Shown here: positions 23,214 to 58,502 of the stretch, in pieces
Position numbering within the stretch: position 1 is the stretch's first letter
Layout of the letters: each line of letters begins with the position of its first letter
Origin: a virus
Direction: 5' to 3' (one strand)
IMG/VR virus record: IMGVR_UViG_3300007177_000160
Location: 1-64,000 of that record
Length of the DNA: 64,000 nucleotides
Notes under the pieces: model-generated
Database searches by the model: none
Told to the model about the DNA's origin: nothing
The model's input: only the letters and a program-made list of their open reading frames with translations
Translations under genes and position numbers: made by a program

Positions 23214-24101
23214 GTCGTTTTCTTGGGTGTTACACTTCTCTAAAACCTGTGTAATAATCGTAGAAATTGTACTTCAGCTCCAGCTCTCGGCTAAAATCAG
23301 TGTATTTTGCAGTTTTGTTTAACTTTTTTGGTCTAACCCCCGTAAATTTGGAGACCTTTAAATTAAAAAGTTAAACAAAATGACAATTCAATGACACAAA
23401 TTGAGGTAAAAAAGGGTTAAAAAGTGGGGATTTTCCCCTCTCAGTCCTTTAATTCTTTCCTAAAAACAAGTCATTTGGTTGAGGCTTGACGTATAGAAAT
23501 AAAGAGGATTCGGTTAAAAGAGTCAGACAGATGGGCTTAACTGGGTTTATTATCGTCTCTATTGTTCTTATCTCTCCCTCTCCTTCTCTCTCTCTTTTCT
23601 CTTTCATTACCTCTTATTAAGGTAATGAACTAATCAGTGTTATGCGCGGGTTTCGGCTCCTGCTCTCTATTGATTCTTTATTAATTCTTTATTGATTCTT
23701 TAAGGTTGATAAACCTTGACATGCCTATGGGGCTACTATGTTGTTCTTCTATTAAGGGTAGAAGTATCAAGCTTAAGCGAATTTCCTTGCTTAAAGCAAT
23801 GACAAGTTAGTGCAGACTTAAAAATTAGGCAGTCTATTACATCTATTATCGTATGATGTAAAGACTTTAAAGACTGGTAACAGTTACGATACAGTATAGA
23901 GAAACCACACTATACTTTATGCCAGGTTTGTGGTGAACCTGAATTTAGAATGTTCTATACGTATTAGTATAGACTTCGGTTTAGTAGGGGGTGTGCATCA
24001 GCTCTGAAATGTTAGGCGACATTTCTGCTACTAGATTTATTTTAATTTAAAAACTAAAAAGGGATATCAGCCGTATCCCGAAGTCCTCAAATAAGCAGAT
24101 T

Positions 24102-28328: not shown

Positions 28329-28398
28329 AGTCAGGTGGCGTAATTGGTAACGCCTTGGTTTATTACAAGAGATACGAGTTCGAGTCTCGTCCTGGCTG
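28329..28398 (+). tRNA. tRNA-like RNA with aberrant anticodon arm (identity undetermined)
   Basis: AGTCAGG/CCTGGCT acceptor, GCGT/ACGC D stem and ACGAG-TTCGAGT-CTCGT T arm are intact; anticodon arm is CTTG-GTTTATTA-CAAG (4 bp, 8-nt loop). Confidence 0.7.
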
Positions 28399-28509
28399 CG
28401 AGAACTGCCTACACAGTTCGGGTTTTCATCATATTGATTTTTTTTTGATTAGTGAATTAAGGCCTTGTAGGGGGCCTTTTTTATTATCAGTACAATTAGT
28501 ATAATCGAT

Positions 28510-36862: not shown

Positions 36863-37657
36863 ATGAATTCAGGAGTATACGCTATTGTATGTAGAGCCAA
36901 TAATAAATTTTATATTGGCTCTTCTGTTAATCTATCAAAACGAATAAATCAGCATAAAAAAGCACTTGAAAATAAAAGGCATAAAAATCCACATTTACAA
37001 AATGCTTATAATTTATTTGGAAAAAATGAATTTTACTATCTTATAATAGATTATTGTCTAGATACTCTTGAGAAAGAACAATATTGGATTACTTCAACTT
37101 TTTGTTATGATAGAAAAATAGGTTTTAATAACACTAAAAAAGCAAACGCTCCTTTAGGTTATAAACATACTTCCGAGTCTAGAAAAATTATGTCTGATAT
37201 TAAAAAACAACAATACAAAGAAGGAAAAATTGCTTCTAATTTTAAATTTAGAACTGTTACAAAACATTCAGAAGAAACTAAAGAAAAAATAAGACAAACA
37301 AAGTTAGGTGAAAAAAATCCTATGTATGGTAAAAAACTCTCTCAAAAAGAAAAAGAAGACAAGAGCAGAGCTATGAATTCTGTACCAAGATGGAATGCAG
37401 GAAAAACCTCAAAAGACGATCCTAGGTTGTTAAAATTAGCAACATGGAAAGGAAAATTGCCCCCTAATGCTAAAAAATGTAGACTTATTAATGAGTTAGA
37501 AAATGTAGACATTCAAGCAAATTCTTTAAAAGAGTTATCAGAAAAATCTAAAATTCCTCAAATAGCAATAAGCAGAATTTTAAAAAACAAGAGTAAAAAA
37601 TATAAAAATTATAAAATTATTTATGAAAGTACAACTTTTATCCCATTGGGGAAATGA
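36863..37657 (+). mobile_element. Free-standing GIY-YIG homing endonuclease with NUMOD3 repeats
   Basis: SGVYAI...FYIGSS.N...R...H, EQYWI, KHTSESRKIMS / KHSEETKEKIR...GEKNPMYGKK; AT-rich; own TTTG-N20-TATATTTG promoter. Confidence 0.92.
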
Positions 37658-47639: not shown

Positions 47640-48199
47640 TTAAAGCATTTTTGTTAGTAAATCCTAACTTAAAGAAAGAACCTTTAGTTATAGAAAAGAT
47701 GTACAAAAAATACATCAAAGAAAATAAACTAGAGCCGAGATCTCTAACAAGAACTTTACCTACAGGAAAATCAATTAAAGTTATAAAACCAAAACAACCA
47801 TTAATCCTACATAGTTGGTCTCCAGAAGAATTACTTATTATGAGTGTATTAGTTAGAGTACACAAAGTAGAATTAAATGATGTGTTGAGTATATCTAGAA
47901 AACGGGAGGTAGCAGATTGTAGAAAACAAGCTATGGCTTTATTTTATGTTTGCTTTGACTACTCGACTGTTCAGGTAGGAAGAATGTTTATGCGGGACCA
48001 CTCAACAGTAATTCATGCAGCAGAATCTCATATACACTTATTAGGTGTCCCTGGTAGGTATAAGAGATTATTTGAAGAAAGCATAGAAGAACTACAAAAA
48101 AGAGTACCTGAAGCATTTGTACGCACACACAAGCGGAGTACAATAGGTAGGAACACTAGATTTATTCAACTAATTAAATGGGAAGAACAACTTAGATAA
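47615..48199 (+). CDS. Protein with DnaA domain IV-like HTH
   Basis: SRKREVADCRKQAM...STVQVGRMFMRDHSTVIHA. Confidence 0.8.
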   Translation: MQTIKEFVIKAFLLVNPNLKKEPLVIEKMYKKYIKENKLEPRSLTRTLPTGKSIKVIKPKQPLILHSWSPEELLIMSVLVRVHKVELNDVLSISRKREVADCRKQAMALFYVCFDYSTVQVGRMFMRDHSTVIHAAESHIHLLGVPGRYKRLFEESIEELQKRVPEAFVRTHKRSTIGRNTRFIQLIKWEEQLR

Positions 48200-49171
48200 T
48201 GGAAAAACTATTAAACATACCAGATGATTGGTATAGTAAACTCAAGCACATCGTAGAGTCAGATTATTTCAAACAACTCTCTGCTTTTATTAAACAGAGA
48301 AGATCCGTTACTGCTGTATTTCCACACAGCAACGAAGTATTTAGAGCATTTAATGAAACTCCATTTGGGAAGATACGCTGCGTCATTATTGGTATGGATT
48401 AAAGAAATTTGCGTATAAATTAATACCTTACGCAAATAGGGTCCATGTAAAACGGGGAGAATTGCTGGAACATCCTAACAAGGACAATCAGCAGCCGAGC
48501 TTAGACAGTAATGTCTTTGAAGGTTCAACGACTAACAACCGAGTCCTACCAGATAATACTGAGGACAGTAATGTTGACACGAGCACCCTGCACTAATTTA
48601 ATTAGTGATGATATAGTCTGAACTATATAGTAATATATAGAAGTGTATGATAAAGAACTTACACGATAACACAATGCCATACCCAACCCTTTACAATGGA
48701 CAACCAGTAGCTTGTGGGCTAGCATTTGCACCTAGATACAAAGAATTTGTACCTCCGTCTCTTAGAATGATTTATAAAAACCTCAAGGACGGTTTATACA
48801 AAAACGATTTAGATTGCCCAGAAACTCTAGATTTTACTAGTTGGGCACAACAAGGTGTATTCTTACTTAATGCAGCTCTTACAGTAGAGCATACTAGAGC
48901 AGGTTCACACCTAAAACAATGGGCTCCATTTACAGAAGCAGTAATTAAAGCTATCTCAGATAATTCATCTGGAGTTATCTTTTGTTTCTGGGGTAAAGAT
49001 GCTCAACAATACAGACAATTTGTAAACCATAGTGCACATTACGTTCTACTGGCACCGCATCCTGTATCAGCTGTATACAAAGGTGGTACGTGGGACTGTC
49101 ACCACTTTGAAGAAGTCAACGAGATATTAAAAAGAAATAATGGAGAAACAATCCAATGGCTGAGTTCCTAG
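48199..49171 (+). CDS. ung: Uracil-DNA glycosylase, split: exon 1 48199-48399, exon 2 48677-49171 (231 aa spliced)
   Basis: Splicing restores VIIGMD|PYP; also GLAF, PPSLR, WAQQGVFLLN.ALTV, SH...W, FWG..A, HP.S. Confidence 0.92.
48400..48676 (+). mobile_element. Group I intron (277 nt, no ORF) in ung
   Basis: 5' exon ends in U and pairs with the IGS (ATGGAT/GTCCAT, U-G pair); P AATTGCTGGAA, Q AATCAGCAG, R TTCAACGACTAA, S GATATAGTCT; terminal omega-G at 48676. Confidence 0.93.
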
Positions 49172-56095: not shown

Positions 56096-57076
56096 ATGAT
56101 TACAGACGAAGAATATTTAGCAAGTAATGCTATCAGCCAAAGTAAGCTGAAGAAAATTTTGACTCACCCATCTAACTATCTAGAAGATAGTTCTGATAGT
56201 GAGTTTGACGAACCAAAAGCAAATATTATTATAGGAGATGGTGTAGATATTCTCCTAACACAGAATGAAGATGTTTTCTTTGAGCAGTTCCACATTAGTA
56301 CAGTAGAAAGACCTACAGGACAGATGGGAGACTATGTGTGGAGTTTATTTATAAACAGAAGCAATCCAGATGCAGAAGAGATTGCTTATCACGAAGCAGG
56401 ATTTAAGCGTGATACCTTTGACAAAGTAAAAGAAAGATTTAAAACTGAAGGTGCTGCGTACTTTTATGACTTACTTAACGGAGAAGACAAAACTGTAATT
56501 AGTCCACAGCAGTTTACGCAGATTCAAGTAGCTAAGGAAACTTTACTTACTCATCGATTTACTGCTAAGTATTTCCGCAATAACGAAAGATACGAGGTTA
56601 AGTATCAGGTACCAATTTATTTTAATTACGAAGGCACAGACTGTAAAGGTCTTATTGACTTAGTTATTATAGATAAAGACACAAGAACTTTGTATCCAGT
56701 AGATATTAAGACAACGGGTTACAGATTGGATTCTTGGATTGGTAATTTCTGGTCTTTGCGTTACGATATTCAAGCGGCTTTTTACAGTTATGGTTTAAAT
56801 ACTATGTTAGAAAAGTTTGGCTGCGAAAAACTAGGCAACTTCAAATTCATAGTGGTAAACCAAACCAAGCCAGAAAACCCATTAATCTTTCAGGTAAGCG
56901 ATGAAATATTAAAGTTTGGGGAAGTAGGTGGTAAAAAGATTTCAGTTGAATACGAAGGCTTTAAACAAGCAATTGCTAGAGTTAAGTGGCATACGGAAAA
57001 TGATCTTTGGGATTATCGTATGGAAGACTATTTGAATAATGGAGTTAGAACTATAAATTTGCCTACGTTAAACTAA
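56096..57076 (+). CDS. PD-(D/E)XK exonuclease (RecE/Exo VIII-like)
   Basis: ISQSKLK, KGLID, DIKTT, YDIQAAFY. Confidence 0.88.
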   Translation: MITDEEYLASNAISQSKLKKILTHPSNYLEDSSDSEFDEPKANIIIGDGVDILLTQNEDVFFEQFHISTVERPTGQMGDYVWSLFINRSNPDAEEIAYHEAGFKRDTFDKVKERFKTEGAAYFYDLLNGEDKTVISPQQFTQIQVAKETLLTHRFTAKYFRNNERYEVKYQVPIYFNYEGTDCKGLIDLVIIDKDTRTLYPVDIKTTGYRLDSWIGNFWSLRYDIQAAFYSYGLNTMLEKFGCEKLGNFKFIVVNQTKPENPLIFQVSDEILKFGEVGGKKISVEYEGFKQAIARVKWHTENDLWDYRMEDYLNNGVRTINLPTLN

Positions 57077-57510
57077 TGGGTACTAATACAGAAGTGAAGG
57101 AATTAAATCTCACAGGTAAGCTTTTATGTGGATTTGTATTTTCTAAAGACAGTTTGGGTGCGTTGATGAGTGCAGGGTTAATCAATATTTATCTTGATGA
57201 TTATGGCTACACATCTCGACACACAGATTGTATGTTCTTTTTATTTAATTCTAACAACAAGTATTACGACTCATTAGAAAAAAAGATTACCAGCTTTGTA
57301 AGCTTCCACGATTGGTATGAAGTGGGAGAAGGTAGACGTATGTTAGTGTTTAAGATAGGTGATGCTTACAAGAAAGACTTCAAAAACTTTAAACAGAATA
57401 ATTTTAAAGATTTTTCTGTAAGTGCTTTGAAGGTTTTACCAATTGTAAACTTTAATTTTGAACTAGATTATTCAAAAGAAATTTATCGATATCACTTATG
57501 TCCAAACTAA
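57076..57510 (+). CDS. Hypothetical protein
   Basis: 144-aa ORF. Confidence 0.7.
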   Translation: MGTNTEVKELNLTGKLLCGFVFSKDSLGALMSAGLINIYLDDYGYTSRHTDCMFFLFNSNNKYYDSLEKKITSFVSFHDWYEVGEGRRMLVFKIGDAYKKDFKNFKQNNFKDFSVSALKVLPIVNFNFELDYSKEIYRYHLCPN

Positions 57511-58502
57511 CACACGCTGAAAAGAAACTAAACCTATACCTAGACATAGCAGAAAGAGTCGCTCAAGAGTCTTACTGTAAGCGTTTACAAGTGGGCGCTA
57601 TCATTGTAAAAGATGGAAATATTATTTCCTTTGGATACAATGGAGCTATAGCAGGCACTGTAAACAAATGTGAAGAATGTCCTGCCGAAGAAATTTGGCA
57701 GGATACTTCATATTTAAACTATCAAGTTAGTTCTTTAGGAAAAGTCAAACGATTAGGTACTACATTAACAAAAGAGATTAAAAAAGCAAATGGAACTGTT
57801 TATATACAGAATGTTTCTTTAGAAGAAAGAGAGTTAGGAATTTCTTGTAATAAAAAGGGTTATCCTGTTGTAAAAATTAACTCTAAAAGTGTTCTAGTAC
57901 ATCAATTAGTAGCAAAGGCATTTATTAAAAACCCAGACTATAGTTATTACAATCAAATAAACCACATAGATGGAGACAAAAATAATAACAACGTAACTAA
58001 CTTAGAATGGTGTACTAATCGCTATAATTGTGAAGAGCGTAGTAAAAAAACACATGCAAATAGAGAACTTCCTTTAGGAGTCTATTTAGATAAGACTAGA
58101 CCAAATACTCCATATATAGGAAGAATTTATGCAAATAATAAAATTCAAATATGTAGATTTGCTACTATAGAAGAGGCTGAAAAATTTGTGAATTATTTTA
58201 AAAATAGTAAAGATTATAAAACTTTTCGGTACGATACTACTAACTTTAGTACGACTTTACCTAGCGTACTTCACGCAGAATCTAATGCTATAACTAAGGC
58301 TTGTAAGTCACCTATATCAACAGAAGGGGCTACAATGTACTTAACGCATTCGTGCTGCTTAGAGTGCGCCAAGTTGATTATTCAAAGTGGCATCAAAAAA
58401 GTCTACTATCTACAGGACTATAGGGATAAATCAGGGATCAATCTTTTAAAGAATTGTGACATTGATGTAGTAAGAATTAACAGAAAACCAACCAACATAT
58501 AA
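57498..58502 (+). CDS. dCMP deaminase with in-frame NUMOD4-HNH insertion
   Basis: SYC.R.QVGA, GYNG, HAESNAI, CCLECAKLI.QSGI flank YQVSSLGKVK...VHQLVA..F...INHIDGDKNNN.VTNLEWCT...N. Confidence 0.9.
   Translation: MSKLTHAEKKLNLYLDIAERVAQESYCKRLQVGAIIVKDGNIISFGYNGAIAGTVNKCEECPAEEIWQDTSYLNYQVSSLGKVKRLGTTLTKEIKKANGTVYIQNVSLEERELGISCNKKGYPVVKINSKSVLVHQLVAKAFIKNPDYSYYNQINHIDGDKNNNNVTNLEWCTNRYNCEERSKKTHANRELPLGVYLDKTRPNTPYIGRIYANNKIQICRFATIEEAEKFVNYFKNSKDYKTFRYDTTNFSTTLPSVLHAESNAITKACKSPISTEGATMYLTHSCCLECAKLIIQSGIKKVYYLQDYRDKSGINLLKNCDIDVVRINRKPTNI

Follow-up and report, generated by a model that had tools for sequence, protein, structure and literature searches.

A homing endonuclease module nested in frame within a phage dCMP deaminase

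The fused reading frame and its parts

The first 64,000 nucleotides of the IMG/VR virus record IMGVR_UViG_3300007177_000160 (hereafter the window) belong to a complete phage genome of 114,265 bp with direct terminal repeats, and contain a gene for deoxycytidine monophosphate (dCMP) deaminase in which a complete homing endonuclease module of the I-HmuI type is encoded in frame. The gene is a single plus-strand open reading frame (ORF) at 57498-58502, comprising 334 codons (334 aa, 38.0 kDa). The module is inserted about six residues ahead of the HAE motif, in the surface loop of the deaminase between strand 2 and the catalytic HAE helix. Alleles that carry the module are referred to as occupied and those without it as empty, and the deaminase sequence flanking the insert as the extein. 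The features of the locus are as follows.

57498..58502, plus strand: fusion ORF, dCMP deaminase with nested homing endonuclease (ORF list, Pfam, composition)
57498..57677, plus strand: N-terminal half of the deaminase, aa 1-60, with helix 1, strands 1-2, the GYNG motif and Cys58-Glu59 (Pfam, alignment, model)
57645..57677, plus strand: 5' junction patch (mismatches against the empty allele L002)
57678..58250, plus strand: insert, a complete HNH homing endonuclease module of the I-HmuI type, 191 codons as drawn (allele comparison, PHROG, fold)
57690..57878, plus strand: NUMOD4, the N-terminal beta-sheet DNA-binding region, aa 65-127 (Pfam, fold)
57954..58028, plus strand: HNH_3 catalytic core, aa 153-177 (Pfam, alignment with I-HmuI)
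58059..58202, plus strand: AP2-like domain of three strands and a helix, aa 188-235 (fold, with sub-threshold profile matches in relatives)
58209..58232, plus strand: KDYKTFRY segment at the end of the insert (family conservation; putative function)
58251..58265, plus strand: 3' junction patch (mismatches against L002)
58251..58499, plus strand: C-terminal half of the deaminase, aa 252-334, with HAE at 58272-58280 and the zinc ligands C287/C290 at 58356-58367 (Pfam, alignment, fold)

In comparison with L002, 622 nt of the window replace 55 nt of the empty allele, a net gain of 567 nt (189 codons), and the boundaries 57678-58250 given by the first-pass annotation, which had reported an in-frame nuclease insert within a dCMP deaminase, are correct to within about two codons. 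The insert is AT-richer than its flanks, as had also been noticed at that stage: its GC content is 0.283 as against 0.37-0.38 in the deaminase halves and 0.369 in the whole window, and an AT content as high as this occurs in only 1.2% of 573-nt stretches. The insert is compositionally foreign. At the 5' end of the gene, the deaminase start overlaps the 3' end of an upstream 144-aa ORF (57076-57510) by 13 nt; an obvious Shine-Dalgarno sequence was seen neither at this start (57498) nor at that of the next gene (58505).

Domain content of the fusion and tests for splicing

Pfam searches of the ORF recovered dCMP_cyt_deam_1 in two stretches (E 2e-23) with NUMOD4 and HNH_3 between them. NUMOD4 (aa 65-127) scored 27.3-27.9 bits against a cut-off of 23.4, and HNH_3 (aa 153-177) scored 24.5 bits in the whole protein and 25.5 in the insert alone (24.5-26.3 overall) against a cut-off of 24.8, while HNH-endonuclease families of PHROG cover most of the insert length (E 3e-32). 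A phmmer search matched the insert to I-HmuI (1u3e) with an E value of 5e-5, aligning N155, H156, N168 and N177 of the HNH core with D74, H75, N87 and N96 of that enzyme. In the AlphaFold model of the insert alone (mean predicted local distance difference test score, pLDDT, 92.4; predicted template modelling score, pTM, 0.80), insert residues 5-126 superpose on residues 1-105 of 1u3e with Z 14.2 and a root-mean-square deviation (rmsd) of 1.6 Å over 99 residues at 32% identity. The NUMOD4-like and HNH parts recognised in the first reading of the sequence are thereby borne out by both Pfam and fold. Elsewhere in the 114-kb record, no other HNH_3 domain or other relative of the insert was found that could represent a donor copy.

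The remainder of the module is best described by its fold. For insert residues 128-175, the best matches, which extend over 43-47 residues, were AP2-type DNA-binding domains, with Z 5.2 for the GCC-box-binding domain 2gcc and Z 4.9 for WRINKLED1; the same segment matched mitoribosomal chains of T. gondii, which we take to be AP2-like proteins, with Z 5.2-5.9, and the N-domain of Tn916 integrase with Z 3.9. Pfam AP2 (PF00847) gave no match in the window protein, and sub-threshold AP2 matches were obtained at the homologous place in two distant relatives, L099 (E 0.0038) and P0014 (E 0.026). The AP2-like tail proposed in the first-pass annotation is therefore sustained by the fold (Z 5.2 to 2gcc) and finds no Pfam counterpart in the window protein itself, so that 'AP2-like' is a reasonable designation, backed by predicted structure and unproven by sequence. 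Together, the I-HmuI-like and AP2-like folds explain insert residues 5-175. They are followed by the segment KDYKTFRY, which is conserved in the insert family and absent from free-standing relatives, and which may serve as a return linker bringing the chain back to the deaminase loop.

The deaminase around the insert retains its zinc motifs, HAE at aa 259-261 and CxxC with C287/C290. In the AlphaFold model of the whole fusion (pLDDT 89.3, pTM 0.70), the deaminase halves superpose on the dCMP deaminase of cyanophage S-TIM5 (4p9c) with Z 23.4 and an rmsd of 1.1 Å over 134 of 135 residues at 42% identity. Both halves are thus predicted to form a complete fold around the insert, with the nuclease as a separate lobe, and the claim that both halves are intact withstood the structural check that had been proposed for it. 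Pairwise ratios of nonsynonymous to synonymous substitution rates (dN/dS) between the extein of the window and those of three empty alleles were 0.15, 0.036 and 0.044, values in which insert-bearing and insert-free branches are mixed. In sub-clades that are wholly occupied, extein identity falls to about 62-76% with every catalytic residue kept. The deaminase is probably still active, since purifying selection continues to act on both halves in insert-bearing lineages.

None of the hallmarks of an intein was detected. The first insert residue, a Cys in the window, is Tyr in P0001, which is 96% identical, and Leu, Pro, Glu or a gap in other relatives; the Cys to which attention had been drawn is real in the window and incidental in the family. 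There is no C-terminal HN, the insert ending in YDTTNFS, and the Thr that follows the insert shows the same conservation in empty alleles. Neither Pfam Hint nor Intein_splicing matched the insert or the whole protein at E<=10, and the model of the insert contains no Hint fold. The variable first residue, the missing HN end and the absence of both a Hint profile match and a Hint fold exclude an intein, in agreement with the earlier remark that Hint blocks and an HN end are lacking. A true intein (C...VHN/C, with a LAGLIDADG domain) does occupy the same loop, three residues before HAE, in another database dCMP deaminase, P0062 (560 aa), which makes this loop a shared target of unrelated mobile elements. 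A further dCMP deaminase in the database, P0085 (416 aa), likewise contains intein or LAGLIDADG Pfam domains.

A catalytic RNA was equally sought. Between positions 57000 and 59000, Rfam returned no intron at E<=10 and only noise, at 17-25 bits against family cut-offs of 38-197, which is in line with the first impression that no group I core is visible. As a positive control, a search of the whole window at Rfam gathering thresholds recovered a group I intron (RF00028) at 48386-48640 on the plus strand with 70.3 bits. The Rfam null result, together with a frame that is open across both junctions in about 28 clusters, speaks against a group I or other catalytic RNA in the insert. The intron at 48386-48640 has no ORF of its own; it splits a uracil-DNA-glycosylase-like gene into ORFs at 48199-48402 and 48647-49171, apparently interrupting a GMD/PYP motif.

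Separate translation of the nuclease was also considered. Insert codons 1-170 contain no in-frame ATG, GTG or TTG, which excludes an internal translation start, and Met is wholly absent from 11 of the 20 inserts of the family. The first in-frame stop is that of the deaminase; with neither a start nor a stop of its own, the insert is not a free-standing gene. The open frame spans 233 codons across the insert region and the remaining five frames hold 13-33 stops each, which excludes a hidden out-of-frame ORF of the kind found in ShiLan domains. With no start codon in 170 codons and no alternative ORF, the nuclease could be produced only as a fusion from the deaminase ATG.

Relatives, mobility and other features of the genome

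A search of 5.8 billion proteins revealed 19 further clusters (at 90% identity) with the nested architecture, showing 36-96% identity at 94-100% coverage and lengths of 304-366 aa, and a profile search against 1.84 billion representative proteins (50% identity) yielded 8-9 nested representatives, six of them new. The architecture is common to about 28 protein clusters, down to 36-40% identity, and is not a one-off. Every relative keeps the reading frame through both junctions, the HNH residues N155, H156, N168 and N177 are invariant across the family, and so are the deaminase residues H259, E261, C287 and C290, with the exception of P0246. Recurrence in independent JGI, ENA, Logan and NCBI sources excludes an assembly artefact. 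Scans of metagenomes and IMG/VR otherwise gave almost only empty alleles, L099 being one distant occupied allele in IMG/VR, and megablast found no close DNA relative in cultured phages; the matches that did appear were confined to short HNH motifs and to distant deaminases without an insert. Long profile matches in several stretches were excluded as deaminase fusions, being tandem NUMOD4-HNH arrays. Six of these proteins (P0295, P0342, P0362, P0365, P0369 and P0374; 489-755 aa) carry two to four HNH_3 domains, up to four NUMOD4 and in some cases NUMOD1, and appear to be tandem endonuclease arrays in one frame that are unrelated to deaminases.

Evidence on mobility comes from insert-free alleles, an alignment with which had been suggested as a check from the outset and produced near-identical empty partners in three lineages. 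The L002 contig is syntenic with the window and 94% identical over about 3 kb on each side, and its deaminase is a plain 145-aa protein without the insert. Differences between the two accumulate at the junctions: 13 of the 33 nt of the 5' patch differ, where the mean of the other bins is 1.5, and 9 of the 15 nt of the 3' patch, where the mean of the other bins is 0.87. The corresponding peptides read AIAGTVNKCEE in the window and TPSGTPNKCEE in L002 on the 5' side, and TTLPS and VTYSY, respectively, on the 3' side. The more distant empty alleles L004 and L003 carry junction sequence of the L002 type, so that the window patch is the derived, imported version, and the 5' patch is taken as a co-conversion tract or an altered target site. 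Three independent occupied/empty pairs are available in all (window/L002, P0002/L182 and P0006/L230), with exteins about 99-100% identical outside the junction patch, which in each pair spans some 8 residues on the N-terminal side of the insert and some 4 on its C-terminal side. The patches of occupied alleles resemble one another, the window and P0002 both having NKCEEC where their empty partners have NKCEEN and NVCESN, respectively. In addition, an empty allele of 141 aa, P0122, is 94-95% identical to the exteins of the window and combines the window-type 5' patch AIAGT with a third 3' version, TLLN; it may have arisen by recombination or by loss of the insert, or may be a resistant allele.

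Phylogenetic comparison points in the same direction. Eight state changes, of which at least three are forced by well-supported branches, are required to explain how occupied alleles are distributed over a tree of 143 exteins, where the window allele falls within a clade that is otherwise empty (98% support). The histories of insert and extein conflict: P0005 and P0013 share 47% identity in the extein and 78% in the insert, P0002 and P0004 share 67% and 88%, and P0002 and P0011 show the reverse, with 87% in the extein and 60% in the insert. The allele comparisons show an element that is gained or lost precisely, taking short flanks along, and that moves between diverged deaminase alleles.

Several other features of the genome were recorded. 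A GIY-YIG domain (46 bits) at 36869-37093 on the plus strand lies in a 271-aa open frame, which is probably a second, free-standing homing endonuclease; it is the sole GIY-YIG match in the genome. Rfam identified a transfer-messenger RNA (RF00023, 59478-59848, minus strand, 73.9 bits), in agreement with ARAGORN, with a tag peptide ending in EYQMAA; it lies some 1 kb downstream from the deaminase gene, where GC content has a local peak (0.45-0.48). A Hatchet ribozyme (RF02678) gave a full-length match of 73.1 bits at 23696-23830 on the plus strand. Finally, a transfer RNA (tRNA) at 28329-28399 on the plus strand (Rfam, 45.7 bits), to which ARAGORN assigns no amino acid and a two-base 'ta' anticodon, is located near tRNA-Met (28181) and tRNA-Glu (26597).

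Interpretation and comparison with known systems

The insert is probably a non-splicing, in-frame homing endonuclease of the I-HmuI type that has become a permanent domain in the deaminase loop. The proposal of the first-pass annotation, a non-splicing selfish element tolerated in a loop, has thus gained support from the absence of intein and intron features, the complete predicted fold, the empty alleles, the junction patches and the tree conflict. To judge from the sequence, the fusion would be transcribed and translated from the deaminase signals as one 38-kDa polypeptide, in which the deaminase halves are predicted to fold normally around the insert and the nuclease to form its own lobe. 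During mixed infection, the fusion would nick or cut the conserved DNA of empty alleles that encodes the loop immediately ahead of HAE. In repair by recombination, with the occupied allele as template, the insert would then be copied along with flanks of about 30 nt (5') and about 15 nt (3'), and the imported flank changes would protect the occupied allele. The deaminase would keep working with the insert in place, and the product would be a bifunctional deaminase-nuclease. A bolder extension, which is tentative and rather doubtful, is that the insert represents a distinct, splicing-independent lifestyle, namely a self-contained insertable domain with its own return linker (KDYKTFRY) for a permissive enzyme loop. 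In that case, the fusion may also exploit its host, the oligomeric deaminase pairing two nickase domains for a double-strand break that is impossible for a monomeric nickase of the I-HmuI type; if this is true, the natural protein is a working nuclease-deaminase chimera.

Some observations weigh against the insert being an active selfish nuclease in a preserved enzyme. The HNH_3 scores sit at the Pfam cut-off, and the metal ligand D74 of I-HmuI is Asn in the insert, as it also is in free-standing relatives. Taken overall, identity in the extein correlates positively with that in the insert (Spearman 0.71), so that vertical descent accounts for much of the history as well. In P0246 (304 aa), the zinc ligands of the deaminase have been lost, with HIE in the HAE position and DEYES replacing CxxC, and the HNH motif is kept; the host enzyme is therefore not always preserved, and P0246 is a possible case of host-gene decay. 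The correlation and the survival of the architecture to 36-40% identity with invariant catalytic residues would also be expected of an HNH-AP2 module that was captured once, is now useful and is mainly a vertical part of the deaminase, no longer selfish, and uniformly occupied sub-clades such as P0006-P0009 and P0014/16/17/18 add to that case. Such a domesticated domain might be a weapon by which competing phages are excluded, or might link the breakdown of DNA with the deamination of dCMP. Near-identical empty alleles in three lineages, the patchy distribution on the extein tree, the strong conflicts between insert and extein, the foreign composition and junction patches that resemble co-conversion nevertheless make domestication improbable as the main explanation. 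An insert that benefits the phage could still spread selfishly.

P0246 is likewise what one would expect if the insertion kills the deaminase and the ORF is kept because the nuclease needs its start codon and promoter, leaving the deaminase halves to decay. The lack of an own start codon in the nuclease fits this explanation, as does an insertion merely six or so residues from the catalytic His. It is nonetheless distinctly unlikely, given that every other occupied allele keeps H259, E261, C287 and C290 despite extein identities of 40-65%, that the C-terminal half, although dispensable for the nuclease, is in frame and conserved in at least 27 clusters, and that the predicted deaminase fold is complete with dN/dS of 0.04-0.15. 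Removal of the insert by unrecognised protein splicing or proteolysis, or through an RNA element that Rfam misses because of its divergence, is very improbable indeed. The true intein in the same loop of P0062 lends it some plausibility, and Thr253 after the insert is nearly invariant and could serve splicing as a +1 residue; this Thr is, however, just as conserved in empty alleles, and the insert does not begin with a conserved nucleophile and has neither a Hint motif nor a Hint fold. Moreover, all 573 nt are taken up by coding sequence for a nuclease with a well-folded model, so that an intron core would have no space; the group I intron that Rfam does recognise in this phage lies elsewhere, with none at the insert, and every relative conserves the frame across both junctions.

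To our knowledge, homing endonuclease genes are thought to persist within genes only inside self-splicing introns or inteins, or else to lie between genes. A non-splicing nuclease domain in the deaminase loop would represent a third route, in which the nuclease is taken up as a domain by the host enzyme, within a few residues of the active site, and yet spreads between phages. This would bear on the union of inteins with endonucleases, in that invasion of coding sequence would be possible without prior splicing. It also illustrates how large an insertion a small enzyme tolerates, and matters for how oddly 'long' enzymes of phages are annotated in metagenomes. Protein engineering could possibly make use of an I-HmuI-like nuclease that carries an AP2-type reader, and of a natural permissive site in a protein of the cytidine-deaminase fold. 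The three occupied/empty allele pairs make target, cleavage, co-conversion and deaminase activity directly testable with synthetic genes.

Among proteins of solved structure, the closest relative of the insert is I-HmuI (1u3e), which is encoded in a group I intron of the DNA polymerase gene of Bacillus phage SPO1 and is a site-specific nickase that acts beside its insertion site. The two share the N-terminal sheet and the HNH core, and both reside inside a conserved phage gene of nucleotide metabolism or replication. In contrast, I-HmuI, which is housed in a self-splicing intron, is delimited by a start and a stop of its own and has a helix-turn-helix at its end, whereas the insert has no intron, start or stop, is fused to its host and ends in an AP2-like domain and KDYKTFRY. 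Free-standing NUMOD4-HNH endonucleases (L006-L016, P0099 and P0102-P0106; 150-200 aa) share 33-45% identity with the insert across NUMOD4 and HNH, and the Met-x-E-x-W with which they start lines up with its first residues; they differ in having their own start and stop, an intergenic position and a helix-turn-helix-like C-terminal DNA-binding part. Inteins with HNH or LAGLIDADG nucleases, including that of P0062, resemble the insert in their in-frame position near an active site, their patchy horizontal spread and the conflict between intein and extein histories. Unlike them, the insert has no Hint domain, conserved nucleophile at residue 1 or HN end, and is expected to stay in the mature protein.

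Closer parallels in lifestyle have been described in other phages. The ShiLan domain of actinophage DNA methylases is an in-frame, non-splicing insert whose HNH nuclease is read in another frame from a GTG start of its own, and its authors also consider the insert to be probably retained in the protein (PMC11855218). A 'lone LAGLIDADG' insertion in the same methylases is mentioned in that paper (PMC11855218, citing Gosselin et al. 2023, Genes 14:288). These elements share with the deaminase insert a phage host frame that is kept open, a homing-like distribution and no detectable intein or intron. The in-frame product of ShiLan is a poorly structured loop, whereas here it is the nuclease itself, with no independent start; the host in the present case is a small, well-conserved enzyme with the insertion site about six residues from the catalytic His, and the family is broad and known from metagenomic contigs instead of cultured phages. 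In Aeromonas phage Aeh1, mobE splits nrdA into two genes whose products reassemble via element-derived tails (PMC3045599). As in the deaminase, an HNH gene of free-standing type lies in a conserved nucleotide-metabolism gene without intron or intein and with host function retained; the difference is that nrdA is split, whereas the deaminase gene stays whole with the nuclease in its polypeptide. A full-text search of the literature found no report of an HNH endonuclease in frame inside a dCMP deaminase, or of such a family. Taken together, the nuclease belongs to the NUMOD4-HNH (I-HmuI-like) endonucleases, and its arrangement matches neither an intein nor an intron nor a free-standing gene and has hardly been described before.

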